Source of the DNA: an uncultured Alphaproteobacteria bacterium
GTDB taxonomy: Bacteria; Pseudomonadota; Alphaproteobacteria; Rs-D84; CACZYB01
Assembly: GCA_934246625.1 (NCBI GenBank)
Contig: CAKQHZ010000001.1
Location: 240,001-272,000, forward strand
Length of the DNA: 32,000 nt
Direction of reading: 5' to 3'
The position numbers were made by a program, and so were the translations under genes. The number at the start of each line of letters is the position of its first letter. Within the stretch, counting starts at the first letter, position 1. The notes beneath the pieces are model-generated. The model did not search any database. It had not been told where the DNA came from and was given only the letters and a program-made list of their open reading frames with translations. Shown piece after piece: positions 10,239 to 30,691 of the stretch.

Positions 10239-10241
10239 GTT

Positions 10242-11210
10242 TTATCCTTTATCTGGAAAAATTCCCAAACATTTATGAAATTCTGTTCTTAATTCATTTA
10301 CAGATTTAAAAGGAATACAGAAGAAATGTATAACAAAAGAGTCTAATCCTTTCATTTTTAGTTTATTTTGAATAACTATATTCAATTTCGGTATTTCTTT
10401 TCGAATTTTCTTTTCTACATCTGAAATAGTTTCTTGATTGGGAGATTGAGGATAATAATTATCTTGTTCAAAGCCAACAAAAGCTATGGCTCTTATTTCG
10501 AGTTTATTAAATTTAGGACTATCTCTATCTAAATACTCCTTAAGTACATCTTCCATTTTTTTATCATTAAGATCTATAAACTGCTTTAATAGAATAAAAT
10601 CCCTATTATCTGCGGACAAGATACCACCATTCGCATTAAGTAAGGTATTTAAGCTATTTAAGCAATCTTCAACTGCGGTAGGAAAATCTTTATAAACTTT
10701 TGATTCTCCCCAATGTAAAGCTAAATTATTATCCTCTGTTAATCCAAGATATACTCCATCTGCACCATGGAAGTACATATTATGATTTGTTTTTAAATTC
10801 ATTTTACATATCACTTGGGGAATTTTTAAAAATTTTTCTGCTAATACAAATAAAATTAGTTCACCTAATTCACCTGACTTAACACTATCGACAAATGTTT
10901 CCTGTGCTTCTTGCCGTAATTTCATCATATTTCTGGTTGTTGAATTTTGGTTATCCCTATTTTTTGCTTCAACAATACGACTTCTTGGAATTACATAATC
11001 AATTATATCACAAACCACACAATCCACAAAATCTTTTGTTCGATCCCGTCCGTTGCCATCTAATTCAATACAATGCCAATAAGATATTGTTTCTGTTTCA
11101 TCTATCTTTTTTTCTTTTTCTACAGTGTGTAAGAAAGCTTCATAGCTATTGAAATCACCCCTAGCTAATCTATTTAATATACTCAATAAAAAATCTTCGT
11201 TCTCAGACAT
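10242..11210 (-). CDS. hamA: Hachiman HamA, DUF1837-like nuclease
   Basis: Track ORF of 322 aa. SGELGELILFVLAEKFL..., KMNLKTNHNMYFHGADGVYLG and LALHWGESKVY (D...ExK) match my memory of the DUF1837 signature. It is immediately upstream of the helicase. Confidence 0.75.
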   Translation of the reverse strand: MSENEDFLLSILNRLARGDFNSYEAFLHTVEKEKKIDETETISYWHCIELDGNGRDRTKDFVDCVVCDIIDYVIPRSRIVEAKNRDNQNSTTRNMMKLRQEAQETFVDSVKSGELGELILFVLAEKFLKIPQVICKMNLKTNHNMYFHGADGVYLGLTEDNNLALHWGESKVYKDFPTAVEDCLNSLNTLLNANGGILSADNRDFILLKQFIDLNDKKMEDVLKEYLDRDSPKFNKLEIRAIAFVGFEQDNYYPQSPNQETISDVEKKIRKEIPKLNIVIQNKLKMKGLDSFVIHFFCIPFKSVNELRTEFHKCLGIFPDKG

Positions 11211-11237: not shown

Positions 11238-11594
11238 TTATAACTTATTGCAATAGTGCATTAATTCATCGACTTTAGCAACGATACGTTTTTGCTCAGT
11301 TAGTGGAAGAAGGGGAATTAAAATATTATGTAACACTCCAGAGGATAATCTCTGTATTCCAATACCTTTTCCTCCGATAAAACCAGTTATTTTATAAAAG
11401 AATAATACATAATCAGCCCTTTTAGGCTCTCCACGTTTAACTTCCTTACCCCTAATCATTATTCTACCTTTAGTAAAGCTAACTTCTTGCTTTATTTGAG
11501 TCTTATTATCCCAACCTCTTTCAATAATGCTTGGTGTAATTTCAATACGTTTAGTATCCTCTTCGGATAATTTATTATAATCAACTTTAACCAT
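11238..11594 (-). pseudogene. Type I R-M scar: HsdR N-terminal domain fused to the HsdS C-terminal tail
   Basis: Track ORF of 118 aa. SEEDTKRIEITPSIIERGWD...FTKGRIMIRGKEVKRGEPKRADYVLFFY is the HsdR N-terminal domain. It runs directly into ...ILIPLLPLTEQKRIVAKVDELMHYCNKL, the conserved end of specificity subunits. Confidence 0.7.
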
Positions 11595-11727
11595 AAGACT
11601 AACCTTTTGTTAGGTTAACAACCAATTTTCTCTATTTTACTTAATTGTATAGCATCTTTCAAGGAAAATAATCTCTTGTTTATGTAAATATTCTTTGATA
11701 AAATGTTTCCGTACATGGAGGTAAAAT

Positions 11728-12291
11728 ATGAAAAAGAAATGGGGATTTTTAAGAGAAACAAAAGAACTTGCTCAAAAAGCAGGAATTGATAAAGATACTG
11801 GTTTACACAGAAATGGTTTAGATGAATATTTAAATGTTATTTTTCCTCATGTTAATGATTGGATTCATGATAAATCTATTGATCTTGATGGAAAAAAATA
11901 TAGACCAGATTACAGAAGTGAAACATTAAAACTTATTGTAGAATTTGATGGACTTCCTCACTATACAAACCCTCAAAATATACTAAATGATATTGAAAAA
12001 ACAGAATTTTACAAAAAACACGAATATAAAGTTGTAAGAATTCCATACTTTATACAATTATCAAATAGTGTTGTTAAAAGTTTATTTAATGTAAATGTAA
12101 AAGAAGAATTATTTGATGAAAAGATACCATCCCTTGGAATACAAGGTCGAAATACTCCAGCTTTTCTTTGTGTAGCTGGAATTATTAGGATGAAGGAAGA
12201 ATTTAAAAAATTTCCGAGACAATATGAAGTTAATAAAAAAGCTCTTATAAAAGAAAACAATCCTTATTTAACAGGCGTAGATTTGATATAA
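11728..12291 (+). CDS. PD-(D/E)xK (DUF559/Vsr-like) endonuclease-fold protein
   Basis: Track ORF of 187 aa. KYRPDYRSETLKLIVEFDGLPHY...YKVVRIPYF resembles the RPD(F/Y)...vE.DG..H core of DUF559/Vsr-like proteins. Confidence 0.45.
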   Translation: MKKKWGFLRETKELAQKAGIDKDTGLHRNGLDEYLNVIFPHVNDWIHDKSIDLDGKKYRPDYRSETLKLIVEFDGLPHYTNPQNILNDIEKTEFYKKHEYKVVRIPYFIQLSNSVVKSLFNVNVKEELFDEKIPSLGIQGRNTPAFLCVAGIIRMKEEFKKFPRQYEVNKKALIKENNPYLTGVDLI

Positions 12292-13386: not shown

Positions 13387-13440
13387 TTTTAGTGGTGCCG
13401 GCACACGGACTCGAACCGCGGACCTGATGATTACAAATCA
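13387..13440. repeat. attL: 54-bp direct repeat containing the displaced 3' 48 nt of tRNA-Thr (13393-13440, minus)
   Basis: ttttagtggtgccggcacacggactcgaaccgcggacctgatgattacaaatca is identical to 30610-30663. Confidence 0.9.
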
Positions 13441-13566
13441 TAAGGGCTATTATTTTACAATTTTTGATTGTAATTTATTTTATTGTATAATCAATATGTT
13501 AAATCGTTTTATGAAAATTTTAAGATTTACCAAAATTGATGTATTTTGACCTTTTTTGATAAAAAA

Positions 13567-13653
13567 TACGGCAATAATTCGGCAATGAAAATTGAATAAA
13601 AATCCTTGATTTTAGCAATGTATATACTTATAATTAAATTATGATTCGGCAAT
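13567..13653 (+). promoter_or_regulatory. Candidate integrase arm-type binding sites (left arm)
   Basis: TACGGCAAT is at 13567-13575, and TTCGGCAAT is at 13578-13586 and 13645-13653. The same 9-mer recurs twice just inside attR. Confidence 0.45.
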
Positions 13654-13686: not shown

Positions 13687-14715
13687 ATGGAAAATAAAGG
13701 AAATATTATAATATACAAAGATGAAAATGGCACAGTTAAGGCTAATGCTTTATTTGCCAATGAAACTATATGGCTTACACAAAAAGGAATGAGTGAACTT
13801 TTTGATATAGACCCTTCTGGTATAAGCAAACATATACAAAATATATTTAATGACGGAGAATTGGCAGAAAACACGACTCTTGCAAAATTTGCAACTGTCG
13901 TAAATCGAGGTTTTCGTGGTCCAATAGAAGAGGAACTTGATTACTATAATCTTGATATGATTATTGCTGTCGGATATAGAGTAAATTCCAAAAAAGCAAC
14001 TGCTTTTCGTATTTGGGCGACAAATGTTTTAAAAGAATTTATTACAAAAGGCTTTATCCTTGATGATGAACGCTTAAAAAATGGAAATATGTTCGGTAAA
14101 GATTATTTTAGAGAATTATTAGAACGTATTCGTGATATTAGGATTAGTGAAAAAAGACTATATCAACAATTAAAAGATATTTACGCCCTTTCCGCTGATT
14201 ATACAAAAGATAATAAAGATGCCTTACGATTTTTTGCAACAGTCCAAAATAAAGTGCATTTTGCAATTACTGGAAAAACTGCTCCTGAAATTATATATGA
14301 AAGAGCAGACTCTGAAAAATCTAATATGGGACTTACATCTTGGAAAAATTCACCAAACGGAAAAATCTCCAAATCAGATATTGGTATTGCTAAAAATTAT
14401 CTTAATGATTCCGAATTACAAGATTTAAGGGGAATAATAAATATGTTCCTTGATTATGCAGAAATGCAAACAAGAAATAACAAACTAATTTATATGAAAG
14501 ATTGGGAAAAACGTCTTGACGACTTTATAAAATTTAATGAAAAGCAAGTTTTATCAAATGCCGGAAAGATATCTCGTATGACAGCACTAAGAAAAGCCTT
14601 TTCTGAATATGATAAATATAAAGAATTATTAAGAATAGAAGAAAAGGAACAAGCTGAAAAAGAAATAGAAACAGATATAAAAGAATTAAATGAAATTTTA
14701 GTGAAGAATAATTAG
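13687..14715 (+). CDS. RhuM-family protein
   Basis: Track ORF of 342 aa. IIIYKDENGTVKANALFANETIWLTQKGMSELFDI...YYNLDMIIAVGYRVNSKKATAFRIWATNVLKEFITKGFILDDERLKNG matches the RhuM signature as I remember it. Confidence 0.8.
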   Translation: MENKGNIIIYKDENGTVKANALFANETIWLTQKGMSELFDIDPSGISKHIQNIFNDGELAENTTLAKFATVVNRGFRGPIEEELDYYNLDMIIAVGYRVNSKKATAFRIWATNVLKEFITKGFILDDERLKNGNMFGKDYFRELLERIRDIRISEKRLYQQLKDIYALSADYTKDNKDALRFFATVQNKVHFAITGKTAPEIIYERADSEKSNMGLTSWKNSPNGKISKSDIGIAKNYLNDSELQDLRGIINMFLDYAEMQTRNNKLIYMKDWEKRLDDFIKFNEKQVLSNAGKISRMTALRKAFSEYDKYKELLRIEEKEQAEKEIETDIKELNEILVKNN

Positions 14716-14772: not shown

Positions 14773-15933
14773 ATGTCAAAACAATTTAACTTCACCAAAA
14801 AAGATATTGATGCATTGCCAGTGCCAAACAAAGGTTTTGCCACCTACTCTGACACAACGGAAAAAGGGTTGAAACTCTACATTACTCCAACAAGGACAAA
14901 GACTTTCTTTATTCGTAAATTTATAAATGGGCGGGATGAACGGCTTATCATAGGTCCGTATCCGGATTTGACTATTTCACAGGCGAGGGAGAAAGCAAGA
15001 ATTTTAAAGGGGACTATTGCAAACGGCATCAACCCAGCGGAGGAGAAAAGAAAACTTCGCCGTGATATGACCGTTGCGGAATTTTTTGATTACTACATTA
15101 CAAATTACTCCACAAAGAAAAAGCGCCCTAATTCCATCAGGTCGGAAAAAACTTTGTATAAAAATCATATTGCAGATTTTCTCGGGTATAAAAAGATGAC
15201 CTTGGTGCAAAAGGCGGACATTGAACGGATTTTAAAGCCCTTGGTAAATCAAGGCAACTTTGCCACAGCAAACAGGATACTTGCCCTGTTTTCTGGTATG
15301 TATAACAGAGCGATTGAATGGGGTTATCCCGATGAAAATCCGACAAAGGGGATAAAAAAGCAACGCGAAAAATCACGGGAGAGATTTTTGCAACCTGATG
15401 AATTGCCACGATTTTTTGAGATGTTAAACTCTGTTAAAAATGAGAATTTTAAAAACTATATATTGCTTTCACTTTTTACGGGGCAACGAAAAAATAATGT
15501 GCTTTCAATGAAATGGGAGCAGATAGATTTGTCGCTTGGGATTTGGTTTATACCACACACGAAAAATGGAGAAAGTTTGAATTGTGCGTTGAGTGATGAG
15601 GCAATAAAACTTCTCTCTGATATAAAACAAAATACAACCTCCGAGTGGGTTTTGCCAAGTGAAACTTCCTCCAGCGGGCATTATGAAGAGCCGAAACGGG
15701 CTTGGAGAACCTTGCTTAAAAATGCAGGGATTGAAAATTTACATCTTCATGATTTAAGGCGAACCCTTGGAAGCTATCAGGCGATAGGCGGTTCAAGTTT
15801 ACAAATAATTGGTCAATCTTTGGGACATAAATCCTTGCAATCTACACAAATATACGCCCGCCTTATCAAAGCTCCCGTCCGCCAAAGCACAAACATGGCC
15901 GTCGCGAAAATTTTGGAGTATGCGAAGAGGTAG
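14773..15933 (+). CDS. int: Tyrosine recombinase, P4-type island integrase
   Basis: Track ORF of 386 aa. The N-terminal arm-binding region is GLKLYITPTRTKTFFIRKFINGRDERLIIGPYPDLTISQAREKA. Catalytic residues are in LFTGQRKNNV, HLHDLRRT and LGHKSLQSTQIYA. Confidence 0.95.
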   Translation: MSKQFNFTKKDIDALPVPNKGFATYSDTTEKGLKLYITPTRTKTFFIRKFINGRDERLIIGPYPDLTISQAREKARILKGTIANGINPAEEKRKLRRDMTVAEFFDYYITNYSTKKKRPNSIRSEKTLYKNHIADFLGYKKMTLVQKADIERILKPLVNQGNFATANRILALFSGMYNRAIEWGYPDENPTKGIKKQREKSRERFLQPDELPRFFEMLNSVKNENFKNYILLSLFTGQRKNNVLSMKWEQIDLSLGIWFIPHTKNGESLNCALSDEAIKLLSDIKQNTTSEWVLPSETSSSGHYEEPKRAWRTLLKNAGIENLHLHDLRRTLGSYQAIGGSSLQIIGQSLGHKSLQSTQIYARLIKAPVRQSTNMAVAKILEYAKR

Positions 15934-16095: not shown

Positions 16096-16701
16096 TTATT
16101 TCGTATGCTCATCTCCAATTTTTATATATTTTCTATAAATTTCCACAGGATTTAGTTTAAAAATTTCTGTTAATATATCATGCTCTTCATTTACTATTTT
16201 TGTTCGCTCATTGTCGACAGGGAGATCTTCTATTTTAAAATTTAAAATAAATGCTTTCTTAGCTTTATTTAACCATAGTTCAGTATATTCAACAATATCT
16301 TTTGGTAAATAAAGTCTTGCTTCTGAAAATGCTTTATAAATATAATTATGAGCTTTTGCATTAACATGACCGGCTCTCCAACATTCTGATATAAATGAAT
16401 TAACCAAATTATAATTATCCAAAAACAATTTTCTTTCATCATCTGTTAATACTTGTTTTTGAGTCATAAAATCAATTTCATAATCTTTAAATTTTATACG
16501 AGATAAATCCATATATTTAAATATCCAACAAACAAGAGCTATAATTCCAAAATAAAAACCTTTTAAATCAAATAAAATTAAAATAAAAGATATGACAGGA
16601 ATTAGCAATAAAAAGAAATATTTTATTGAAATATTATATTGAGATAAATAACTTTCTAAATTTCCATACCAAATTTCTACTTTATTTACTTTCTTATTCA
16701 T
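16096..16701 (-). CDS. Hypothetical two-TM membrane protein
   Basis: Track ORF of 201 aa. The hydrophobic segments are YFFLLLIPVISFILILF and FYFGIIALVCWIF, followed by a soluble C-terminal domain. It starts 4 nt after the stop of the upstream ORF. Confidence 0.5.
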   Translation of the reverse strand: MNKKVNKVEIWYGNLESYLSQYNISIKYFFLLLIPVISFILILFDLKGFYFGIIALVCWIFKYMDLSRIKFKDYEIDFMTQKQVLTDDERKLFLDNYNLVNSFISECWRAGHVNAKAHNYIYKAFSEARLYLPKDIVEYTELWLNKAKKAFILNFKIEDLPVDNERTKIVNEEHDILTEIFKLNPVEIYRKYIKIGDEHTK

Positions 16702-16705
16702 ATTT

Positions 16706-17053
16706 TTATTTTCCTTGAAACAATTTATTTAAAATAAATTCAAAACCTTCATCTTTTAATTTATCAACAGCTACATAAAAAGGAATATTGTTAGTAAGAT
16801 AAACTAATGATTTATAGACTGTATTATAATCAAGTTCTTCATATTTAACTATTTTAACATTTGTAAATATAGATAATGCGTTGATAGATTGTTTATATCT
16901 TTCCATAGATTTATTTAATCTATCTTGTAGTTCATTAAAATTATTTCTCCTTATAACCTCTATATTTTCATGATAAAAAGATATATCTTCTCCTAAATCA
17001 TAAGAAGATTTCATTATTTTTAATCCTTCATAGACATCATCAAATGTAATCAT
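16706..17053 (-). CDS. Hypothetical 115-aa protein, first gene of a two-gene unit
   Basis: Track ORF with no recognisable motif. It is tightly coupled to 16096-16701. Confidence 0.45.
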   Translation of the reverse strand: MITFDDVYEGLKIMKSSYDLGEDISFYHENIEVIRRNNFNELQDRLNKSMERYKQSINALSIFTNVKIVKYEELDYNTVYKSLVYLTNNIPFYVAVDKLKDEGFEFILNKLFQGK

Positions 17054-17204
17054 ATTCTCTATCCTTTCTGTAATTTATTATAATTCTGTATGTTTTTTAA
17101 TATTCTATTTACATTTTGTTTATTTACAATATTTTATTTCCTTCAAAACATACCACATTCAACCTATTTAGCACCGTTCAGCCACCTTTGTAACCGTTTG
17201 CAAG

Positions 17205-17246
17205 CACTTTGAGACTACTTACAACTGGTAAGTAAAGTGTTTTTTT
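17205..17246 (+). terminator. Orphan rho-independent terminator on the + strand
   Basis: CACTT-tgagac-TACTTAC-aactg-GTAAGTA-AAGTG (17205-17239) is followed by T7 (17240-17246). No + strand CDS lies upstream of it. Confidence 0.5.
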
Positions 17247-17423
17247 ATTAAGTATAACATATTGAAAAGATGGAGTAAAACTTGAAGTTGTTTTTTTGAC
17301 TCGAAAGTAGCTTGCCCTAATTCTGCAACCATTTAGAATTTTTTTGAACCAAATACCAACCTGTTTGATAGTTTTTATACCATTAGTTAAAGTTCTATAC
17401 TAATAAAATCTTTACATCCTATA

Positions 17424-17452
17424 TTGAAATTTAAGGACATATTTCTTATATA
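17424..17452 (+). promoter_or_regulatory. Candidate promoter TTGAAA-N17-TATATA for the 488-aa/417-aa operon
   Basis: ttgaaa is at 17424-17429 and tatata at 17447-17452. An AAGGA Shine-Dalgarno sits about 8 nt before the ATG at 17486. Confidence 0.4.
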
Positions 17453-17485
17453 ATAATATATAATTGAATTAAGAAAAGGATTAAA

Positions 17486-18952
17486 ATGTTTTATGCAAAT
17501 TGGATATTTTTCTTAGGTGATAAAGAAAATAAATATAAAATTTTTGTATATGGACTTTCTTTACCAACAAATAAAAAAGAAAAATATGTTTCTAAATTAC
17601 AAAAACTTTGTAAAATTGATAATTATAATTTATATATGTTATGTGCAATTACAGAGATAAATAATATTATACAAGATAATACTATAAATTTATCAATTAT
17701 TTCTGATGAATTACCTCAAATAAAATATTTATGTTCAAAAAAATTTATTCAACCTGCTGACCCAGGAGAGGCATTGTCATATATTAAAAGTCCTATAAAT
17801 AGTTTAACAAATATTACTAGCTACTATACTAAAGAAATTTTAACAAAAGAGTTTTTAAACGAAGATTTAATTATTCTCTTGAAGCAATTAAATGATATAT
17901 TAAATCAAAGGTTTTATGGAGAATATTCAAAAAGATTAGGTTGCTTTGAAATAGGAGAAATACAAACTTGGGCAGAAGATATTATTCCATTTTATTTTAA
18001 ATTTGATAAAAATAATAATGACTATATTTTTCATAAAAGAAATGATTTTAAAGAAGATCTTTATATTGTTTTAAAATGTTATTTATCAGATAATGAGAAA
18101 ATATATGAAAATATAAAATTTGTTTCTAAAACAGATAATGATATTCAATTCAATGGAATTAAAGAGCATTGGATATATGAAGCTTCTATATATAATAATA
18201 CAGGAAATTTAATACATGAGGAAAAATATTTCTATACAAAACGTATTTGGTTAAATATATGTCCTAAACCTTCAAATAAAATAAAAATAGAAGATGTATA
18301 TTCTGAAAAAGATGCTAATTTAAGGACTGTAGATTCTGCTATATTTACTACTCAATCTATAGTAAATAATCCGTATATTGATATTAAATATGATGAAATA
18401 GAAAAATTACATAAAAATATAGAACAGAGAATAAACAATTATAAAATCTCTGAAAAAGAAGGAGCATTCTTTTCAGAAAAGGATAAATTAAATTCTATAA
18501 TAAATTATCTTAATTCTATTAACTTAAAAAATGATAAAATTATCATTATTGATCCTTATATTGATATAGATTCTTTATCATTAGGGTTGAGATTACATTC
18601 AAGCGAATTATTGGTGATTTCTTCAAAAAATCCGCCACATATGCCAAAATCCAGTATCAAGCAAAATATACAAAATATACTTAAAGTGAAAAAAGAAAAT
18701 AATATAAACAGTATTAAAGTTCATTTTATTGAAAAACGATTTCATGATAGATTTATTATATTTTTTAATAATCATGAAAAAGATATTTATAGTATATCAA
18801 ATAGTGTTAACTCCTTAAAAACAAATCCTAATATATTAATTACAAAATTAAATGGAAAAGTTAGATTTGATGTAGAAAAATATCTTGATACATTAATAGA
18901 ATTATGTAAACCAGAAAATACAGTTGAAGAAATTTTAAAAAATGATAAATAA
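17486..18952 (+). CDS. Unknown 488-aa protein; C-terminal DPYI...HDRF region reminiscent of MIT_C-type PLD-like domains
   Basis: Track ORF. The C-terminal segment is KIIIIDPYIDIDSLSLGLRLHSSELLVISSK...VHFIEKRFHDRFIIFFNNHEKDIYSISNSVNSL. I recognise no motif in the N-terminal part of about 330 aa. Confidence 0.55.
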   Translation: MFYANWIFFLGDKENKYKIFVYGLSLPTNKKEKYVSKLQKLCKIDNYNLYMLCAITEINNIIQDNTINLSIISDELPQIKYLCSKKFIQPADPGEALSYIKSPINSLTNITSYYTKEILTKEFLNEDLIILLKQLNDILNQRFYGEYSKRLGCFEIGEIQTWAEDIIPFYFKFDKNNNDYIFHKRNDFKEDLYIVLKCYLSDNEKIYENIKFVSKTDNDIQFNGIKEHWIYEASIYNNTGNLIHEEKYFYTKRIWLNICPKPSNKIKIEDVYSEKDANLRTVDSAIFTTQSIVNNPYIDIKYDEIEKLHKNIEQRINNYKISEKEGAFFSEKDKLNSIINYLNSINLKNDKIIIIDPYIDIDSLSLGLRLHSSELLVISSKNPPHMPKSSIKQNIQNILKVKKENNINSIKVHFIEKRFHDRFIIFFNNHEKDIYSISNSVNSLKTNPNILITKLNGKVRFDVEKYLDTLIELCKPENTVEEILKNDK

Positions 18953-20195
18953 AAAGTTTTGTTTTAAGAAATTAACTGATACTAAACCAGAAGTTGTATT
19001 GACTAATTTAATAAAAAAATTTAACTCTAGGAGAAATATTAAACTTATAAAATATGTTGAAGCATTATCATTATTATCTCATATAAGAAATGAAAAAATT
19101 TTTAAGTATCAATTAATAAAAATATTGAAAACAAAATTACTTAATAATATTTATAATAAATTAGAGGATTTACCTAGTACTTTTGATGAGATTAATATAG
19201 ATATATCAGAAATTGATAGTTTAATTAACTCAGAATTATCATATAAATTAATAGACAATATTGCAAAAACTGAAATTAATATAAATAAAAATTATAAATA
19301 TTATGGAATCCGTAACTTATTTCAATATTTATTGGAAATAGATTTACAAAATTTTGAAAAATTTATATCAGAAACAAATAGAGATGATTTTAAAATAATA
19401 TTTGTAAGTATTCTTTTATCTATATTTCCAATATTAGAAGATATATATAAAAATTGGGATAAAGCTACCTTAGGTATTTTACAGGCATATTATGCAAATA
19501 TATACTACAATAATAATCCTCACTATTGGCAATTTAATTTAAATAAAAATAAAGAGATTAATACAATATTAAAAACAAACTTACCTAATAAAAGTAAATT
19601 TATAATATATTTGAAGTATATTATTCAGAAATATCACGGTAAAAAATTCACTAATTTATTAAAAGATAGTGAAATTGACAATTTAGTAAATAACCTATTA
19701 TCTATAGATTATAACTTCACTTGTGAAGAACTATTTGCTCAATCTCCAGTTTTTTATTCTTCAATATATTTGATAATTATAGATAATGTTTCTGATAAAA
19801 AGAAACAATACGAATTTGCTTCTTTCTTATATGAAAAACTCATAAATTGTATTGAAAAAAATAATTCAGAATATTATGTTCAATACATAGAATATGCAAA
19901 TATATTGGGTGATTTAACTATAATTATGAATAATTTTGATAAACTAGATAAATTATTTAATCAAAATTATAAACAATTATTATTTCCATATAGTTTTTGT
20001 AAAAGACAAGATTGGAATGAAAAGATATTATTATTACTTTATATACTAATATCAATAAAAATAGTATATGATGGAAATGATATTTCCAACTACTTACATA
20101 AATTTAAAGAAGTAAAGGGCAAGCACTTGACAATGCTAGAAAAAATAAATCCTGATATCTATAATCAGATAATCAAACAATTAGACAATAATTAA
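18942..20195 (+). CDS. Unknown 417-aa, apparently all-helical protein, overlapping the upstream ORF by 11 nt
   Basis: Track ORF with no recognisable catalytic motif. The overlap with 17486-18952 suggests translational coupling. Confidence 0.5.
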   Translation: MINKKFCFKKLTDTKPEVVLTNLIKKFNSRRNIKLIKYVEALSLLSHIRNEKIFKYQLIKILKTKLLNNIYNKLEDLPSTFDEINIDISEIDSLINSELSYKLIDNIAKTEININKNYKYYGIRNLFQYLLEIDLQNFEKFISETNRDDFKIIFVSILLSIFPILEDIYKNWDKATLGILQAYYANIYYNNNPHYWQFNLNKNKEINTILKTNLPNKSKFIIYLKYIIQKYHGKKFTNLLKDSEIDNLVNNLLSIDYNFTCEELFAQSPVFYSSIYLIIIDNVSDKKKQYEFASFLYEKLINCIEKNNSEYYVQYIEYANILGDLTIIMNNFDKLDKLFNQNYKQLLFPYSFCKRQDWNEKILLLLYILISIKIVYDGNDISNYLHKFKEVKGKHLTMLEKINPDIYNQIIKQLDNN

Positions 20196-20277: not shown

Positions 20278-22086
20278 TTATGATTCTTTAATCTTATTCA
20301 ACCAAAATAAATACCATTTATCCTGAATATGTTCTTTAATTTTATTCTCAATACTAAGAGTATTCAATTTGTTATTTTCTAAACAAAAATTATATAGAAT
20401 TAAAAATTTAGATAAAGGATAACCCTTTTTATGTTTATTTTTAGGAAATAAATATTCTTTTAAATAATGTATATTTTTACATGATCTAATTTCATCCATA
20501 TTATAAATTACAGAAGATGCATCATTATAGTCACGTTGTAAAATGAAACTACGTAAATCATTGTATTCATCTTTTAAGTCTGGTAATAAACGAAAAAGAA
20601 TAGATGAAACTTGTCTAGTTAAAAATGAATTTTTGATCCAAAGATTTCGATATTTATTTATATGTTCATAGATAGATTTTGGTGTTTCATATTTAGCAGC
20701 AAACCATAAGTAACTATAAAAATTAAATTCTTTATCCTTAATAGTTAATGATTTTAAATATTTAGATATATAATTTATATTTTCAATATCCACTCTTGAA
20801 TATCCAATATTCCAATCTATAATTAAAGCAACCAATAAAAATAACGTTATATCATCATATCTTGTAATATTTATCAATGATTGAAAAATTTTATATGTTT
20901 TTTTAGTATATCCTAATTTATATAAATATTGACATACATTAGTTCTCAGATCTGAATATTCTTCAAAAATTCTTGGTAAATATTTTAAGATTTTAGTAAA
21001 ATTGTTATTTCCAGCAATAGTCAAAAATCTTTTTAAAACCTTATCAAAATTTTTATATTGTTTATTCTTGTTCCAATGTCTTCTAAAATATTTCATAAAC
21101 TCTTTTTCTTTTGGGGGATTTTTGTCAAATATATTTAATTGAATATTTTCGTCAAATAAAAAATGTCTTTTTGCCTCAGAAGCATCAAGAATCTTTGTTT
21201 TTGACATATTAAGAGACAATCCTCTACTTTTTAAAACATCAGATATATTGCTTAAAATTGACTTAGCCTCCCTTATATCATCAATACCAATAACAATATC
21301 ATCCATCCATCTTACAAAATTTTCATTTATTTGATATTTTAATAAGTAATCAATTTCAAAAAGAAAAGAATGTGCTAATAGTCTAATTGCTTCTAAATTA
21401 ATTGTAGGCATTCCAATTGATTGATTGGGTAAATAATCTGGTTTCCATGATAAATCTTCAATTATATTAAAAATTAAATCTAATAAAACTTCGTCACATT
21501 TGATATACCCAGAAACTACACTTCTTAACTCATTTAACCGTATACTATCAAAATAATTTGATAAATCTGTTATAATAATATATTTTTTTGTTTTTGTAAA
21601 TTGAAGAATTTCATTTTGATATATTTTCCATTGTTCAAACCAATCATTATAATCCGTATTTATTTCATGAGGAAGTTTAATAGAAGAACTTTTATCTCTA
21701 GAATAATAAGCATGATTTGAAGGTGCCTGTTTTTCTAAATCATTACAAAAAGGTTCTATAAGAGCTTGTAAAATAAGAGTGTCACTAGGAGATAAAATAA
21801 TCATATGGCGACAAATGCCAAATTTTTTCTCTAATGTATATATAATTGGTATTTGCGATTTATATTGACCAGAAATAATTTGTTCATTAATTTTACTTGT
21901 ATTATAATCTATTCTTCTATGAAAATCATAAAAATCATGTAAATCAAGAATACTCATACTCCTTACTTGACTCTTAACTTTATGTTTCCATAATGTTTTT
22001 AAAGTATCCTTTTTAAATGGATTTTCTAACTGTTTTTGCCTTTTTTTAAATCTTAACGTTATAGGTTTAGACATTTTAAAACTCAT
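20278..22086 (-). CDS. Reverse transcriptase of the UG/Abi (defence-associated) type with a long helical C-terminal extension
   Basis: Track ORF of 602 aa. RT motifs: ILSPSDTLILQALIEPF (2), YIIITDLSNYFDSI (A), FVRWMDDIVIG (C) and LSLNMSKTKI (D/E). About 270 aa of helical C-terminus follow, including EIRSCKNIH (R-x5-H). Confidence 0.8.
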   Translation of the reverse strand: MSFKMSKPITLRFKKRQKQLENPFKKDTLKTLWKHKVKSQVRSMSILDLHDFYDFHRRIDYNTSKINEQIISGQYKSQIPIIYTLEKKFGICRHMIILSPSDTLILQALIEPFCNDLEKQAPSNHAYYSRDKSSSIKLPHEINTDYNDWFEQWKIYQNEILQFTKTKKYIIITDLSNYFDSIRLNELRSVVSGYIKCDEVLLDLIFNIIEDLSWKPDYLPNQSIGMPTINLEAIRLLAHSFLFEIDYLLKYQINENFVRWMDDIVIGIDDIREAKSILSNISDVLKSRGLSLNMSKTKILDASEAKRHFLFDENIQLNIFDKNPPKEKEFMKYFRRHWNKNKQYKNFDKVLKRFLTIAGNNNFTKILKYLPRIFEEYSDLRTNVCQYLYKLGYTKKTYKIFQSLINITRYDDITLFLLVALIIDWNIGYSRVDIENINYISKYLKSLTIKDKEFNFYSYLWFAAKYETPKSIYEHINKYRNLWIKNSFLTRQVSSILFRLLPDLKDEYNDLRSFILQRDYNDASSVIYNMDEIRSCKNIHYLKEYLFPKNKHKKGYPLSKFLILYNFCLENNKLNTLSIENKIKEHIQDKWYLFWLNKIKES

Positions 22087-22156
22087 TAAATATTATTTTG
22101 CAAAAATATATTATCTTTATAAGTCTTTTTCAATAAAAAATATGAATTATTATCTT

Positions 22157-25100
22157 TTATCCAAACAATCTATCCAGTTCTTCTTCTAAAATACCTTCCT
22201 TAACAAGAGGAAGTGTATCAACTTGTTTCAAATTATGTTTTTGAATGAAATTTTCATTATCGAAACCAAGGATATATGATATAGCAATACGATAAATTAT
22301 TTCTGTCGGTGCTAATCCATAAACTTGCTTTTCAAAAATATGCTTTAATCTATCTTTTGAATCAGGATAAATCTTTATCAATTTAGGATTATTATATAAT
22401 CGTTTTACAATTTCAGTGATATATAATCCTGATTTCATATATAAATCAATAAATGTTTTATCTGGATCTGTAAAGCAATCTGGACATTCTTTTTCTAAAT
22501 TATCTACCATTTCTTTTACTACTTTTTTAGGCGTAAAGATTTGGTTTGTTTTTTGTGGTGGAATATAATCAAAAATATCCTCAGTGTTATTTTCATCAAA
22601 ATAATTGGAAAGTTTAGTTTTCAAATTTAAGAATTCCTTAATGGAATCATTGAAAACAATAGGATCAAATAGATGTCCATCAAAATGCTCCATTTTTCCT
22701 GTTTTTTCATCTTTATAATCTCCACCATCACGTAAAAACTTAAATTCAGCAAGAGAAATACTTGTAACTTCTTTAAATACTTCATCTGGTATAATTGTAT
22801 CAAAGTTTTCTAATGTTGTGTTTTCATTACCATAAGCCATTAAAAATGAAGGTATTGTTCTTGAAAAACCTCTTAAATAGTCTCGAACTGAATCTTCTAT
22901 GGCTGTTTTTTCTTTTTGCCTTTTATCTGTTTCTACTCTTTCAATAATTGTATTTCCTGTATTTTGAATAAGTTCAGGAAGTTTATTCTTCAATTCTGAA
23001 ATAAATGTTGTTTTGTTTTCAGCAACTTTCAAATCATATAGTTCATTAATTTTATCTTTTTCAAAATCAGATGCTGTTTTTAATTCTTTTTTTCGTTCTA
23101 ATTCTGTCTGATTTTGTAAGATTTTATAATTACCATATTCTTTATCAAAAACCTGATTTGTTGTATTTAATATTGTTTGAGTAATTTTCTTTAAAGAGCT
23201 GGTTGTTACAGCATTTTTGTAGTTTGTTTTTACTGTATCAACAAAAGTTTCTTCAACTTTAGCTTTAAATGTATCTTTTAATTCTTTTAATTTCTCATCA
23301 TCTTGTTCAGGTTGGTTATTTTGCAATTCATTTACAGTTTCAACTAAATCTTTATTAATACTTTCATAAATCTTATCTCCAAATATTTCATTCGCTTGAC
23401 CAATAATAAAGTTTTGTGAAAGTTCTACTTCTCCATCTTCATTTAAAGATAAATCATCTTTTGTATTTTGATTAATTGGTAAAGGTTCTTTTGTCTTTTC
23501 AAATTTTTTTATAATATCAACAACTTCTTGTGGTGCATTGAATATGTTTCCAATATTCTGGAATAAGAAATTACTCATAAAACCACGTTGAACGACTTCT
23601 TGTGCATGGATTTTACGAGGAATAGATAATACCTGTTCAGCCTTAAGAAGTATCATTTCACCATCCTCATCTTCACCATAAACAGGGAAAAAGTTTAAAA
23701 GTTCTCTAACATTTTGTTTCCTTGTATCACTATCACCTTGTCCACTTGTTGTATTTATACTTAAATCGTTAGCAAATTTTTCAACAATTTCCAAAGTTCT
23801 TGCTGGATCAAAATCAAATACATAAGCATTTTCTTTTCTAAAGAATTGTCTATCTTTATGGAATATACAAGGATTTTGCGACCTGAAAGCTGTTTGCATA
23901 TATAATGCTGGACTTTTAACATTACCAAGCATTAAAACTGCTGTCCATTCAGGAATTGTAATTCCAGTAGTTAATTGTCCTACAGATAGAGTAATTGTCT
24001 TTTCATAATTCTTTATGCCATTAACAACTTTATTAAATGCATTTTCACGTTCTTCGTCTTCATTAAGTTTACCATCCCCAGCGGCAACAATAATTTCATA
24101 ATTTTTAAATATAGGGTGATTTTTTAATTTTTTTGCCAAAGCTTTAACACTACCAACTCTATCTAAAAACCAGAATGTATGATTAAGTTCATCTCTTAAT
24201 TCTTGAGTTGAAAATGGAAATTTAGTTTTTATAGTTAATGCATCCAAAAATTTATCAACGGCTTCATCATACTTAAAACTTCCATTTTCATTTGTTGAAA
24301 AGAATTCATTCAAATCAAAAGCATATTCTCTAATATCATCATCAGATAAATTGCATCCCTGTTTTACCTTGTCTTCAATAATATCTGACATCTTATATGT
24401 ATAAAGATTTAATTGAGGTAAGTTTTGATAAGGATTTTCTTCTTCGTTTGATGTATCCCAATTTTTTTTTGCATTTTGTTCATCAGCATAAGTCCAATTA
24501 AATATAGCTTTCTCTTCAAATTTATTATTTGCTAAAGCTTTAAATGGCGTTCCAGATAAATGAAGTGTAAATTTTCTTTTTATTTGATCAAAGGCAATGT
24601 CAGTATGATATGTATCAACACCTTCATGTGCTTCATCAATTACTAATAAATCCCAGTCTAAATCTTTAATCTCTTTAAGTTTATCATATTTTCCACCAAA
24701 GTAGATTGACCCTTTTAAATCTTGTAATGATACAAATTCAATACATCCTTTATGATTTCCATCGTTAAGTTTATTTAAGTATTCTTCTCTTGATAGAACA
24801 TATTCTTTACTTTTCAAAGTACTAACTTGACTAACAAAATAATATCCTGAATTGGTACCTAAAAACCTTTCATAATCAGCATACCAAGAATTAGCAATAG
24901 CTGGTCTATTCGTTACAATTAAAACTTTTTTTGCATTTATCTGTTTGCATAAGTCATAAGTTGATAATGTTTTACCAAATCTAGGTTTTGCATTCCATAA
25001 AAATTCTGGTTCATCATCTTTATGACTTTCAAAATATTCTTTTGTTTGAGAAACAGCATTAAATTGCTCATTTCTAAGTTTGTATTCTATTACAGGTTTT

Positions 25101-25456
25101 GTTTCTAAAATTCCTCTGTTTTCTTTAAATTCATAAAATTTTTCTTTTGAATCTTTTGGGGATATTTTAAACCATTCTGTATCCGGTTTTCTTTCAATAT
25201 TGTTTTTCTTAAGGTAAGCGTGAAAATCTGTATCATGGAAAACCTCGCCAGAACCATCCTCATATATAGCATTAGATTTCCATTCCAATACAAATTTTAC
25301 ATCTGCAGTTTGAGTTTGCTGTTTTATACGAGTTTCGACATCTTGTTCTGTAAAACCAATCTTTGTCCATCCATCATGTTCTTTAATCTCAGGAGTTGTA
25401 TATGCATAACACATAGGGACAATTTTCTTTAATGTTTTAATATTTAGTTTTACCAT
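22157..25456 (-). CDS. GIY-YIG/T5orf172-like nuclease domain + SF2 (Res-like) helicase + C-terminal methyltransferase-N-half-like region
   Basis: The track ORF runs to 25492. I prefer the ATG at 25454-25456 (MVKLNIK...), which has GGAG about 9-12 nt upstream and abuts the upstream stop. N-terminus: WTKIGFTEQDVETRIKQ...HAYLKK...TEWFKIS. Helicase: KPRFGKTLST (I), LLVIDEAHEG (II), LSGTPF (III) and LYMQTAFRSQNP (VI-like). C-terminus: NQIFTPKKVVKEMVDNL...KTFIDLYMKSGLYITEIV...KQVYGLAPTEIIYRIA. Confidence 0.75.
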   Translation of the reverse strand: MVKLNIKTLKKIVPMCYAYTTPEIKEHDGWTKIGFTEQDVETRIKQQTQTADVKFVLEWKSNAIYEDGSGEVFHDTDFHAYLKKNNIERKPDTEWFKISPKDSKEKFYEFKENRGILETKPVIEYKLRNEQFNAVSQTKEYFESHKDDEPEFLWNAKPRFGKTLSTYDLCKQINAKKVLIVTNRPAIANSWYADYERFLGTNSGYYFVSQVSTLKSKEYVLSREEYLNKLNDGNHKGCIEFVSLQDLKGSIYFGGKYDKLKEIKDLDWDLLVIDEAHEGVDTYHTDIAFDQIKRKFTLHLSGTPFKALANNKFEEKAIFNWTYADEQNAKKNWDTSNEEENPYQNLPQLNLYTYKMSDIIEDKVKQGCNLSDDDIREYAFDLNEFFSTNENGSFKYDEAVDKFLDALTIKTKFPFSTQELRDELNHTFWFLDRVGSVKALAKKLKNHPIFKNYEIIVAAGDGKLNEDEERENAFNKVVNGIKNYEKTITLSVGQLTTGITIPEWTAVLMLGNVKSPALYMQTAFRSQNPCIFHKDRQFFRKENAYVFDFDPARTLEIVEKFANDLSINTTSGQGDSDTRKQNVRELLNFFPVYGEDEDGEMILLKAEQVLSIPRKIHAQEVVQRGFMSNFLFQNIGNIFNAPQEVVDIIKKFEKTKEPLPINQNTKDDLSLNEDGEVELSQNFIIGQANEIFGDKIYESINKDLVETVNELQNNQPEQDDEKLKELKDTFKAKVEETFVDTVKTNYKNAVTTSSLKKITQTILNTTNQVFDKEYGNYKILQNQTELERKKELKTASDFEKDKINELYDLKVAENKTTFISELKNKLPELIQNTGNTIIERVETDKRQKEKTAIEDSVRDYLRGFSRTIPSFLMAYGNENTTLENFDTIIPDEVFKEVTSISLAEFKFLRDGGDYKDEKTGKMEHFDGHLFDPIVFNDSIKEFLNLKTKLSNYFDENNTEDIFDYIPPQKTNQIFTPKKVVKEMVDNLEKECPDCFTDPDKTFIDLYMKSGLYITEIVKRLYNNPKLIKIYPDSKDRLKHIFEKQVYGLAPTEIIYRIAISYILGFDNENFIQKHNLKQVDTLPLVKEGILEEELDRLFG

Positions 25457-25457
25457 A

Positions 25458-25838
25458 TTACACCATCTCCTTTTTATCCAATTGAATTCCATTTACTTTT
25501 GTTTTTAATTGTTCAATTAGTTTATATTTATGTTTTTTGATATAATATTTACGTAAAAATAAAGAAATAATTTCTATAAATAATCCAATAAAATAAATAT
25601 ACACGTTATCTATATATAAAGTTTCAAAAATATTAGAAATGGTAAAAGATAAGATACCAACACATTTTAAATATCTTTCTTTTAAATATTCTTCTATCAA
25701 ATTTGTATTACAATCTAAATATGTTGAACTTTTTGCTAAAATATGCTCATCTGAATCTAAATTACATATTATTAATATAATACCAAATATTTGCAAAATA
25801 AGTTTTAATACAGTAGATAAACTTAAATAAATAAACAT
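25458..25838 (-). CDS. Small multi-pass membrane protein inside the methylase/helicase gene train
   Basis: Track ORF of 126 aa. The hydrophobic segments are LSTVLKLILQIFGIILIICNL, CVGILSFTISNIF and VYIYFIGLFIEIISLFL. GGAG lies upstream of the ATG. Confidence 0.5.
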   Translation of the reverse strand: MFIYLSLSTVLKLILQIFGIILIICNLDSDEHILAKSSTYLDCNTNLIEEYLKERYLKCVGILSFTISNIFETLYIDNVYIYFIGLFIEIISLFLRKYYIKKHKYKLIEQLKTKVNGIQLDKKEMV

Positions 25839-25853
25839 TTTTACTCATCTCCT

Positions 25854-26843
25854 TTAGACAGTTTTTTGTTCAATATACTTTATTTCTTCTAATGTAAGAT
25901 TATATTTTTCATATAAATCTTTGTTGTTCCATTTCTTTGAAAAATCTTGGATAGGTACAAATTTATAAACATTTCTTGCTGCATTTTGTGATTTTTTTAT
26001 TTGAGATATTAAGTATTTATATAGATTAGTATTCATATATGAAATAACATTTTCACATATTTCTTTACTATCAAATGGTCCCACAACTAAATATGTTTCA
26101 TTACAAGCTGTTCCTGGTGCTCCATAGAATGGTAATCCATTAAATTTTGCAGAAATTTCTCCTGCTTTTGATACATAAACTTTATGCTGATCAATCCATT
26201 CTTTTTTAGAAATAATTTTATTTCTATCTATATATGCAAACTTTTCATCTGAACGATCTCGAGAAAATCTATAAATTTTAATGGAATTTTTTTCTTTTTT
26301 ATTTGAAAAATAATTTTTATAATTTCCAACTTTTCCATTAGCAAAAGGAGAATATGTTGAAACTAAATCCATAAATGATGCAAAATCTTTAGAATATATT
26401 CCAACTTTAGTTACTATTTCATCAGCTTTTGGATCTCTTATAAAAAATTCTGTTCCATGTTCAGCCATGTTCCTAATATCTGTTTTCACTATATCGCCAT
26501 CTATATAGGTATATTTTGTATGTGCTGTAACATTTTTATCATATATAAAGTATGATACACCACCAGCTAAGGAAATATTTGTTTGAAAAACCTTATTTGC
26601 ATCAGTATAATCAACCATAGATGAAATATGATTATTTTTTAACATAAATTTTCTAAATTCATCTAAACCAGTTCCACCTGTCATCCATAAACTTGGTGTA
26701 ATCATAGAAACATAATTAGCTTTTAAATTAATTGCACTTTGTACAAAATGATGATAAACAGGATTTGCTTGAGAAATAGATCCTGAATTATTTGCAACTA
26801 ATTCCTGATAAGGTGGGTTTCCAATTATAACATCAAACTTCAT
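25854..26843 (-). CDS. N6-adenine DNA methyltransferase, C-terminal half (motif IV NPPY plus putative target-recognition domain)
   Basis: Track ORF of 329 aa that begins MKFDVIIGNPPYQ, so it lacks the AdoMet-binding motifs X and I. AAAGGAG lies 7 nt upstream of the ATG. It overlaps the upstream ORF in ATGA. Confidence 0.8.
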   Translation of the reverse strand: MKFDVIIGNPPYQELVANNSGSISQANPVYHHFVQSAINLKANYVSMITPSLWMTGGTGLDEFRKFMLKNNHISSMVDYTDANKVFQTNISLAGGVSYFIYDKNVTAHTKYTYIDGDIVKTDIRNMAEHGTEFFIRDPKADEIVTKVGIYSKDFASFMDLVSTYSPFANGKVGNYKNYFSNKKEKNSIKIYRFSRDRSDEKFAYIDRNKIISKKEWIDQHKVYVSKAGEISAKFNGLPFYGAPGTACNETYLVVGPFDSKEICENVISYMNTNLYKYLISQIKKSQNAARNVYKFVPIQDFSKKWNNKDLYEKYNLTLEEIKYIEQKTV

Positions 26844-27775
26844 TTTTTAGCTCCTTTCAAATCTTTGAAATAGATAGTTTTTCCACTACGCCAATCTTTG
26901 ATTTTGCAAAGTATTGGTGTCGAAAGTTGTATATCTGTATTAAATAAATCTGGTTGAAAATAATCTTCTTCTGTTGTTGCAAATGGTACAGTATCGTTTA
27001 AACCATCCATCTGCCATATATTCCATGAAATAATATTTGCAATTTGCTCAATCTGTATAAGACTTGGTTCTTTATGATATTTATTCTGATAGTAATCAAT
27101 AAAAGTCCAAAGCAAATTTTCCCTTGCCAATAATAAATTATCGCCTTGGTATTCATAACCATAGGTACTTTCAAATGCTCGCTTAACCCAATTAAACCAA
27201 TCTGTATCATTATTTGTGTTTTCGTTAACGACACGAAGTTTTCTATCTAAAATACCTATACGTTTTATGATTGGTAAGATTTCACCAGTTGTGGTATCAT
27301 ATCTTGAAACTAAATATGGTGCCTCACCACAAGTAATTTCAAGTCTTCTTGAATCGACATAACTTTTCCAATCCTTGTCGTTAAAATCTATAAATCTTTC
27401 ATTTGGTATCCAATCTTGATTTTGTTGGATATTGAATACATTTTTGTAACCAAACCATTCTTCATCACAAAGATTATTCATTTCATTACAAATCCAAGAT
27501 GGAGTGAAAACTTCTGCTGATTTATGGGTACGATTTTTTTGTTCTTCTTTGTTTTTGGCAATTCTTGGCTGAATAATAGAGGTATTCTTATCAATAATTA
27601 ATTCAGGTAAGATTTCTTTTTCTTTTGAATAATCATCACCATATTTTAGATATTCATCGCATGCCCAATGGATATATCTCCCTGTTGTCTTATCCCTTAG
27701 TAATATCTTTAAAAGATAAGGACTTAAGACATGTATATATTGCTCAAGAATATCTATGTTACTTTCAATAACCAT
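26840..27775 (-). CDS. N6-adenine DNA methyltransferase, N-terminal half
   Basis: Track ORF of 311 aa. It has AEVFTPSWICNEMNNL (motif X-like) and LEITCGEAPYLVSRYD (motif I region), and ends ...DLKGAKK directly before the NPPY ORF. Confidence 0.7.
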   Translation of the reverse strand: MVIESNIDILEQYIHVLSPYLLKILLRDKTTGRYIHWACDEYLKYGDDYSKEKEILPELIIDKNTSIIQPRIAKNKEEQKNRTHKSAEVFTPSWICNEMNNLCDEEWFGYKNVFNIQQNQDWIPNERFIDFNDKDWKSYVDSRRLEITCGEAPYLVSRYDTTTGEILPIIKRIGILDRKLRVVNENTNNDTDWFNWVKRAFESTYGYEYQGDNLLLARENLLWTFIDYYQNKYHKEPSLIQIEQIANIISWNIWQMDGLNDTVPFATTEEDYFQPDLFNTDIQLSTPILCKIKDWRSGKTIYFKDLKGAKK

Positions 27776-30408: not shown

Positions 30409-30526
30409 AATATACCCTTCTATTTTAAAATAGATACAGCTACTATTCTACTTCTTATATCCAGCTCTATTTTAAATATAATTCCACAATAATCAAATCT
30501 TTTTCCCCTGCAAATTTCTGCAAAAA

Positions 30527-30546: not shown

Positions 30547-30615
30547 GGAAATTTTGCACGCAAAACTCATCGTTCTTACTAACTTCATAACTCATTGATT
30601 TTTGGATGGTTTTAG

Positions 30616-30691
<76 letters not shown>

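Follow-up and report, generated by a model that had tools for sequence, protein, structure and literature searches.

This work concerns two overlapping genes, here called P1 and P2, in a stretch of 32,000 nucleotides (nt) from an uncultured alphaproteobacterium with low guanine and cytosine (GC) content, 27% (GenBank assembly GCA_934246625.1, contig CAKQHZ010000001.1, positions 240,001 to 272,000). We refer to this whole stretch as the window and number positions in it from its first letter; loci from other genomes and plasmids carry L numbers. A first-pass annotation had singled out the pair as an orphan operon and a candidate novel defence system. Our analysis indicates that the pair is most aptly viewed as a two-gene variant, split or modular, of the Juno/VPA1262 family, rather than as an orphan or a new kind of system, and comparative sequence evidence makes it probable that P1 and P2 constitute a conserved anti-phage module related to Juno, with their translation probably coupled.

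Organization of the locus

Both genes lie on the + strand and start with ATG. In the open reading frame (ORF) listing of the window, P1 occupies 17486..18952 and encodes 488 amino acids (aa), and P2 occupies 18942..20195 and encodes 417 aa. The two genes overlap by 11 nt (18942..18952, +), with the P2 ATG embedded in the final codons of P1 (the sequence across the overlap, read directly, is ...AAAAATGATAAATAA...), an arrangement that suggests translational coupling. A Shine-Dalgarno sequence, AAGGA (17476..17480, +), can be read directly 5 nt ahead of the ATG of P1. The initial description of a + strand operon with its own Shine-Dalgarno sequence, an 11-nt overlap and a convergent reverse transcriptase (RT) gene is hence confirmed in its coordinates, with the RT gene on the minus strand. 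The same description had included a promoter-like element, and a TTGAAA-N19-TATAAT sequence is indeed present (17424..17454, +; TATAAT at 17449-17454), but it is weak evidence for a promoter and cannot be told from chance in DNA of this composition. Its spacer of 19 nt falls outside the 16-18 nt optimum, the GC content of the stretch around the pair is 19-22%, and promoter-like matches in it number 49 versus 39.4 +/- 7.2 in shuffled sequences, which is no excess. Because such matches are not commoner than in shuffles of this AT-rich DNA, the element carries no statistical weight.

No terminator-like hairpin was found 3' of P2, between P2 and the RT gene. The 432-nt gap upstream of P1 (17054-17485) has no Rfam match at gathering or E<=1 thresholds and folds no better than shuffled sequences on either strand (z-scores of 0.03 and -0.32); a regulatory RNA or an attachment remnant in this gap was considered and rejected on both counts. 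A GC-richer patch lies at ~17150-17340 inside the gap. That P1 and P2 are real genes is evident from relatives at 17-39% identity that keep full length and gene order in 13 independent lineages.

P1 and the Juno/VPA1262 family

The VPA1262 family has been renamed Juno and described as a widespread single-protein anti-phage defence in a preprint dated 3 August 2026 (10.64898/2026.08.01.741415). Juno proteins from Pantoea and Vibrio, expressed alone in E. coli, protected against four phages, and phages T4, lambda-vir, BASEL_35 and BASEL_45 are sensitive to Juno; the preprint contains no domain analysis and proposes no mechanism, required >=70% coverage in its homologue search, and describes homologues in diverse Gram-negative genera (10.64898/2026.08.01.741415). 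Given this coverage requirement, a half-length protein such as P1 would fall outside the search.

Judged by profile and sequence comparison, P1 is no orphan: it is a free-standing protein homologous to the N-terminal half of Juno/VPA1262. It scores 81.3 bits (E 6e-23) against the NCBIfam model NF040700, VPA1262 family N-terminal domain, for which the cut-off is 80, with P1 residues 145-472 aligned to profile positions 125-477 of 478. GenBank already uses the name 'VPA1262 family N-terminal domain-containing protein' for MDD3466973.1, a relative with 27% identity encoded in a metagenome-assembled genome (MAG) of Campylobacterales. With P1 above the model cut-off and a relative named alike, the earlier statement that neither protein could be assigned to a family fails for P1. 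A weak tblastn match on plasmids pointed to a 1126-aa 'VPA1262 family protein' on Agrobacterium fabrum pAt12D13b, and BLASTP aligns P1 residues 255-482 with residues 354-594 of the Agrobacterium protein at E 8e-9. Profile-profile comparison with hhalign, using a 12-sequence P1 profile and the N-terminal halves of 35 full-length VPA1262 proteins, gives a probability of 98.8% in local mode (E 1e-16) and 99.6% in global mode (E 1e-22), the global alignment covering all of P1. On the full-length VPA1262 model, NF040699, P1 scores 70 bits over profile positions 155-553 of 1026, below the cut-off of 325, and the Agrobacterium control scores 1114 bits.

Two results weigh against the family assignment: the margin of P1 over the NF040700 cut-off is only 1.3 bits, and its close relatives P0002 and P0003 fall just under that cut-off, at 79.8 and 66.2 bits. 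P1 returned nothing in Pfam, PADLOC or PHROGs and no match by sequence in the PDB, and PADLOC-DB v2.0.0, which dates from 2023, before Juno, holds no family for either P1 or P2 at E <=0.1. NF040700 names a domain to which no function, partner gene or fold is attached in the searchable literature.

Full-length VPA1262 genes were also observed on Agrobacterium, Anabaena, Nostoc and Shewanella plasmids (L007, L026, L027, L028), three of which are conjugative, the Agrobacterium one being typed as non-mobilizable. Their neighbours on these plasmids include NERD, nucleotidyltransferase/DUF6602, VapC toxin-antitoxin, ATP-binding plus DUF2290, and RecD-like genes. For the Shewanella copy, the annotation goes no further than 'hypothetical protein'.

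Predicted structure and conserved motifs of P1

The AlphaFold2 model of P1, built from 12 sequences, has a mean predicted local distance difference test score (pLDDT) of 79 and a predicted template modelling score (pTM) of 0.59. Residues 1-250 (17486..18235, +) are modelled as two beta-rich domains (1-120 and 125-250) of beta-sandwich or Fn3-like type, with pLDDT >90 for residues 1-90 and 74-92 for residues 125-250. Foldseek relates them to Fn3 and cytokine-receptor beta-sandwiches (E 3e-3 to 1e-2), more weakly than it places the C-terminal domain, and a conserved motif, FVYGLSLPT, lies near the N-terminus. Residues 250-298 (18233..18379, +), with pLDDT <50, are probably a flexible linker and constitute the least conserved segment of P1 (mean identity of 21% vs about 31% elsewhere). 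Residues 300-488 (18383..18949, +) are predicted to form an alpha/beta domain with pLDDT mostly of 72-91, for which Foldseek searches of the PDB return the phospholipase D (PLD) superfamily at probabilities of 0.99-1.0. The top match is FAM83/BJ-TSA-9 (4urj, E 6e-5) and the third is TrmBL2 (5box); NgoAVII R (4rct, E 8e-5), PPK1 (2o8r), vaccinia F13 (9fhk), BfiI (2c1l, E 1.5e-3) and Zucchini (4gel, E 7.5e-3) are also among the matches.

A PLD-like C-terminal module had already been proposed from the strings IIIIDPYID, FHDRFIIF and SISNSVNSL, all of which are found in P1, and the structural search upholds it (probability 1.0, E 6e-5). The narrower suggestion that this module is of MIT_C type does not stand, P1 having no Pfam hit and MITD1 being absent from the top 50 structural matches. 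MIT_C (PF16565) was detected in the C-terminal domain of the L015 protein only, one of eight relatives, at 13.8 bits against a cut-off of 25 (E 0.055), and is kept as a hint.

Three motifs stand out in this domain. D356-P357-Y358 (18551..18559, +) was identified from the alignments, with D356 invariant in alignments A1, A5, A6 and A7, and P357 invariant in A1, A5 and A6 and >=90% conserved in A7; DP[YFW] occurs in every full-length P1-like protein and Juno lineage checked, and is not found in a 187-aa mini-protein encoded at L025. H420-D421-R422 (18743..18751, +), invariant in all alignments, is proposed to correspond to the HxK motif of the PLD superfamily, arginine taking the place of lysine; within the P1 family F419 is invariant as well, and HDR recurs in the Agrobacterium, Anabaena, Nostoc and Shewanella Juno proteins and in the L025 mini-protein. 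N439-S440-V441-N442 (18800..18811, +), which follows a predicted beta-hairpin, is the proposed counterpart of PLD GSxN; the P1 family shows no variation at N439, S440 or N442, and the Juno proteins carry SNSxQ. Every P1-like and Juno lineage checked has HDR and NSx[NQS], with identities as low as about 20%. From this conservation, H420-D421-R422 may be assigned a putative catalytic role.

Set against the PLD signature, HxK(x)4D(x)6GSxN, P1 has the histidine (H420) and the N-S-x-N motif (439-442), with the lysine replaced by the invariant R422. The signature is non-canonical in this replacement, lacks a conserved Asp at the usual spacing and is drawn out by a hairpin 11-13 residues longer; neither P1 nor eight isolated C-terminal domains match Pfam PLDc or PLDc_2 even at E <=10; and FAM83/BJ-TSA-9, the best structural match, and TrmBL2 are PLD-like domains not known to be catalytic. 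These departures count against reading P1 as a PLD-type enzyme, and the pTM of 0.59, which leaves the inter-domain arrangement unfixed, counts against the interpretation of the pair as a whole. MIT_C/MITD1, FAM83 and TrmBL2 are all thought to be PLD-like pseudo-enzymes, and the first and third ranks that FAM83 and TrmBL2 take in Foldseek, the lysine-to-arginine change in all members, the sub-threshold MIT_C hit as the best Pfam hit of one relative and the lack of a PLDc match would be consistent with P1 being one too. P1 would then bind DNA, membrane or protein, with the activity that kills or blocks residing elsewhere, for instance in P2 or a host factor. However, the H, D, R, N and S residues are kept at only about 20% identity, in full-length Juno proteins included, a degree of constraint typical of an active site; the NgoAVII, BfiI and Zucchini nucleases are also among the structural matches; and P2 has no recognisable enzymatic fold. 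We regard the pseudo-enzyme alternative as possible but doubtful, and the choice between a catalytic and a binding role for the HDR-type domain as the main uncertainty in our interpretation of the pair as a Juno-related defence module.

Conservation of the gene pair

In all 13 of the 13 lineages in which both positions are readable, the window counted, a P2-like gene comes immediately after a full-length P1-like gene, as expected if the pair is always co-inherited. The P1-like genes match P1 profiles at E 1e-30 to 1e-200. Loci were found both from P1 (L008/L011, the JGI contig with P0002, L018/19, L021/22, L023 and L025) and from P2 (L009, L010, L012-14, L015/16, L017, L029-32 and L033), and the pairing also holds for the lineages found through P1 alone. 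Tight junctions are the norm, with overlaps of 1-14 nt in seven of the nine related lineages tabulated; the exceptions are L023, where 2 nt separate the genes, and L015, where the distance is 380 nt. At L025, an extra ORF (11560-12123) separates the P1-like from the P2-like gene and encodes the 187-aa mini-protein, which matches the PLD-like module only and keeps FHDRF and GNS. This PLD-only protein fits an active site made of two halves, and could be the second half-site of a composite PLD active centre.

P2 (18942..20195, +) is modelled by AlphaFold2 as an all-alpha, solenoid-like protein of about 24 helices, and its model (29 sequences; pLDDT 86.4, pTM 0.86) agrees with the helical character attributed to it at first sight. 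No family was found for P2 in Pfam, PADLOC, NCBIfam or PHROGs, and it has no sequence match and no significant Foldseek match in the PDB, and no match in BFVD. Its best Foldseek hits (LGN TPR, importin-alpha and designed toroids) have E >=0.05 and template modelling (TM) scores <=0.26. Classification of P2 as a TPR, ARM or HEAT solenoid repeat was rejected, there being no Pfam repeat family and only a generic resemblance at such TM scores. An exhaustive profile search recovered 34 P2-family representatives among 1.84 billion, of 376-472 aa save a few short fragments and none inside a longer protein. One family member, DAJ70206.1 (P0205, in the cluster of P0129), occurs on 152 contigs, and GenBank lists it as 'Caudoviricetes sp.'. 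Scanning IMG/VR by pattern turned up no viral contig with a relative of P1.

P2 and the C-terminal half of Juno

The end of P1 coincides with the end of the Juno N-terminal domain, at ~594 of 1126, leaving ~530 residues as the place that P2 would fill; P2 proteins measure 410-470 aa vs about 530-570 aa for Juno C-terminal halves. Comparison of P2 with the C-terminal half yielded nothing by BLASTP, by hhalign (E 0.19-0.77, with 3- and 29-sequence P2 profiles and, against a more diverse alignment of C-terminal halves, in local, global and low-mact modes) or by hmmsearch --max (negative bits), and P2 has no hit on the full-length model NF040699. The best hhalign score against the C-terminal half is 19.3, which does not improve on 18.6 against the N-terminal half and lies only slightly above the 12-13 of reversed controls. 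Homology of P2 to the Juno C-terminal half thus goes undetected in these comparisons, which speaks against the pair as a split Juno, a description that would draw only on position, size and helical character.

The same data raise the alternative of modular exchange, in which P2 would be an unrelated helical protein recruited in trans and the VPA1262 N-terminal domain a portable effector cassette, the pair still serving defence. It is favoured by the lack of similarity between the P2 family and Juno C-terminal halves, even in controlled profile-profile comparison, by the absence of any P2-family member from a long fused protein among the 1.84 billion representatives, and by the shorter length of P2. 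Yet the missing similarity is weak evidence, for three reasons. Juno C-terminal halves from distant lineages fail to align, even where the N-terminal halves align at 25-27% (Agrobacterium/Nostoc, Shewanella/Anabaena). P2 is the faster-evolving partner, with a mean identity of 23.6% vs 30.2% for P1; P1 is the slower of the two in 43 of the 45 locus pairs (pairs that are not independent). Finally, the C-terminal half of Juno is rated alpha-like by a crude hydrophobic-periodicity test (0.69, vs 0.38 for the N-terminal part), calibrated on AlphaFold2-modelled segments (0.38 for the P1 beta domains, 0.55 for the PLD domain and 0.76 for P2). Gene order, tight overlap and alpha-helical character, moreover, match simple fission or fusion. 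On balance we think modular exchange somewhat improbable as an account of the pair.

Genomic context and the case for defence

The neighbourhood of the pair was defined by recognised defence genes within 10 kb. Known defence genes adjoin the pair in eight of the 11 lineages with readable flanks. The window itself has a defence-associated reverse transcriptase (DRT) of type UG13a and RhuM in the island that holds the pair, with Hachiman just outside. Directly upstream of the pair lie Olokun (OloA/OloB) at L018, which also has a Schlafen-like helicase and RhuM, PDC-M62A/B (ATPase plus HNH) at L023, an MmeI-type restriction-modification (R-M) system at L025 and PDC-S01 at L029-32. Elsewhere the neighbours are a C5 methylase and HindVP endonuclease (L011), a type III R-M system and an AriA/PD-T4-4-like ATPase (L012), Gabija (GajA 1e-87, GajB 4e-48) with a PLDc_2-SNF2 helicase and several R-M genes (L030), and an MmeI-type R-M system, PDDEXK_4 and a protein kinase (L033). 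The R-M genes at L011, L025 and L033 belong to type II or IIG. Three lineages have no clear defence neighbour and tell against a defence role: L015 has nothing but ParE, L017 nothing but an AAA protein of 1680 aa, and L021 nothing besides LysR and a hydrolase.

At L029, L031 and L032 (1500-6488), which represent one lineage, the pair stands behind Mu-transposase_C, TniB-like and integrase-SAM genes and PDC-S01 (AAA_14-DUF4143) genes, and looks like the cargo of a Tn7-like transposon.

Mobility could also be taken as a sign that the pair does not act against phages at all, and is instead an addiction module, a means of excluding rival elements, or a stability function of a plasmid or island. 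The pair is always in mobile or variable DNA (an island at tRNA-Thr, Tn7-like genes, a serine recombinase with ParB), full-length relatives reside on conjugative plasmids, and a ParE toxin adjoins the pair in L015. Defence systems, however, are themselves typical cargo of mobile elements, the neighbours of the pair are mostly bona fide anti-phage systems, and no resemblance to known toxin-antitoxin or partition proteins is seen in either P1 or P2. Full-length family members alone, moreover, protected E. coli from four phages (10.64898/2026.08.01.741415). A role outside phage defence is accordingly improbable. The defence role that the first-pass annotation had considered plausible is strengthened by the homology of P1 to the experimentally validated Juno, by the strict conservation of the pair and by its location mostly beside defence systems.

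The integrated element and its other genes

The pair lies in an island of 17.2 kb bounded by a perfect 54-nt direct repeat, whose copies at 13387..13440 (attL-type) and 30610..30663 (attR-type) are 100% identical. The attR-type copy overlaps the 3' part of a tRNA-Thr(TGT) gene (30616-30691, -), and for this reason the pair can be placed in a tRNA-Thr-integrated element. A tyrosine integrase gene (14773..15933, +) matches Pfam Phage_integrase (E 2e-27) and Arm-DNA-bind_3 (E 2e-16). Repeat, tRNA gene and integrase together sharpen the earlier notion of an integrase-bounded island. Short repeats of AAAATTCGGCAATGA type, about 120-180 bp from the att copies (13563-13588, 30512-30537 and 30523-30548), may be arm-type integrase binding sites. 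The island also carries RhuM (13687-14715), a resolvase, a RepO/HTH protein and pieces of an Eco57I-like methylase. Near-identical copies of it occur in several human-gut metagenome assemblies, and their flanks beyond RhuM can differ.

The RT gene (20278..22086, -) matches Pfam RVT_1 and PADLOC RT_UG13a (E 2e-178). It is followed on the same strand (20278-25492, -) by a gene for a 1111-aa protein with T5orf172 and ResIII/helicase domains and a weak PADLOC match to PDC-S57, and the two may form an RT-helicase defence unit of their own. Since the RT adjoins the pair in the window and in every near-identical copy of the island (L001-L006), the question arises whether the pair is an accessory of the UG13a RT, both belonging to a single larger DRT-type system that spans the convergent junction. 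Comparative loci largely refute such a functional link. No RT-family gene occurs among the annotated neighbours of the pair at L011, L012, L015, L017, L018, L021, L023, L025 and L029-L033 (where not every ORF was scanned), and on this ground we take the pair to be independent of the RT. The convergent orientation, which implies separate transcription, and the activity of Juno as a single gene point the same way, and a shared system is very unlikely.

Between the integrase gene and P1, two small overlapping-frame ORFs of 201 aa and 115 aa (16096-17053, -) match no family in Pfam, PADLOC, NCBIfam or PHROGs; all island copies keep them, and the other P1/P2 loci lack them. The Eco57I-like methylase region (25854-27775, -) is broken into ORFs of 329 aa, 311 aa and 126 aa; in L006 (8144-10104), an ORF of 342 aa is called for the first piece, and there is no 126-aa gene. 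These pieces may be degraded or phase-variable R-M or BREX-like genes. The window and L001 have a Hachiman-type pair (HamA plus a DEAD/ResIII helicase; 7647-11210, -) immediately beyond the island; L002 (3325-5630) has an HNH gene and a C5 methylase gene in its place, in an otherwise identical context. This swap suggests a variable defence hotspot beside the tRNA-fragment repeat, with islands in tandem.

Proposed mechanism and implications

The homology of P1 to the N-terminal half of Juno, the PLD fold of its C-terminal domain, the conservation of the motifs, the pairing, the faster evolution of P2 and the defence context are directly supported by our results. From these we infer an anti-phage activity of the pair, catalytic competence of P1, a sensor role for P2 and dimerisation, which can be combined in a working model. 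P2 would be the sensing or regulatory subunit, recognising a phage-derived cue or keeping P1 inactive, and the beta-sandwich domains of P1 may bind the target or a partner. Infection would bring P1 molecules together, so that two single-motif PLD domains could form one composite active site. Such assembly has precedents in Nuc, BfiI and Zucchini, whose single-motif PLD domains dimerise into one active site. The assembled enzyme would cleave a phosphodiester substrate, most likely nucleic acid, and cleavage might halt phage replication directly or through abortive infection.

A more far-reaching proposal is that the VPA1262 N-terminal module is a portable effector cassette combined with unrelated, fast-diversifying helical sensors, joined to it in one chain in Juno and encoded by a gene of their own in the pair, that P2 represents a new family of sensors acting in trans, and that the HDR-type PLD domain is a new catalytic variant assembled on infection. 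We put it forward tentatively, as rather less probable than the Juno-related defence module itself. As for the novelty claimed at the outset, the two-gene architecture is new, but the family was already known, and the novelty is correspondingly narrower.

The comparison provides a first domain-level hypothesis for the whole Juno family, consisting of two beta-sandwiches followed by a PLD domain with DP[YFW], HDR and NSxN motifs, in which H420, R422 and N439/S440 of P1 would correspond to H530, R532 and N551/S552 of the Agrobacterium protein. The natural split between a conserved, effector-like half and a fast-evolving helical half could make the two functions separable, by genetics and by biochemistry, without protein engineering. 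The family, moreover, reaches low-GC gut bacteria (Campylobacterales, Brachyspira and MAGs), in which coverage-filtered searches and PADLOC v2.0.0 would miss it.

Comparison with known systems

With MIT_C, the PLD-like domain of MITD1, P1 has in common the general PLD-like fold and a DPY...HDR-type pattern, the likeness pointed out in the first-pass annotation; MIT_C is also the top Pfam hit of one P1 relative, spanning DPF to HDR below threshold. The single-HKD PLD nucleases (Nuc, BfiI, NgoAVII R and Zucchini) share their fold with residues ~300-488 of P1. Each of their chains likewise has a single His motif, with a beta-hairpin and a motif of (S/G)-N-S-x-N type after it, and dimerisation of P1 would be expected by analogy with them. 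P1 differs from these nucleases in having H-D-R instead of H-x-K and a longer hairpin and in lacking a conserved Asp at position +4 relative to the basic residue, and its accessory domains are predicted to be beta-sandwiches rather than B3-like DNA-binding domains.

Juno (NF040699) is the closest system. The whole of P1 shows homology to the N-terminal ~590 residues of Juno, the beta and PLD-like domains included, and the two proteins share the motifs DP[YFW], HDR and NSx[NQ]. The C-terminal half of Juno and P2 are both fast-evolving and apparently helical, and Juno and the pair are both cargo of mobile or variable 'armory' regions. Juno, however, is one polypeptide of about 1000-1170 aa, whereas the pair consists of two genes encoding 488 and 417 aa; and while the full-length Juno members found belong mainly to Proteobacteria and cyanobacteria, the pair occurs in low-GC gut and environmental lineages, among them a Campylobacterales MAG, Brachyspira and an alphaproteobacterial MAG.

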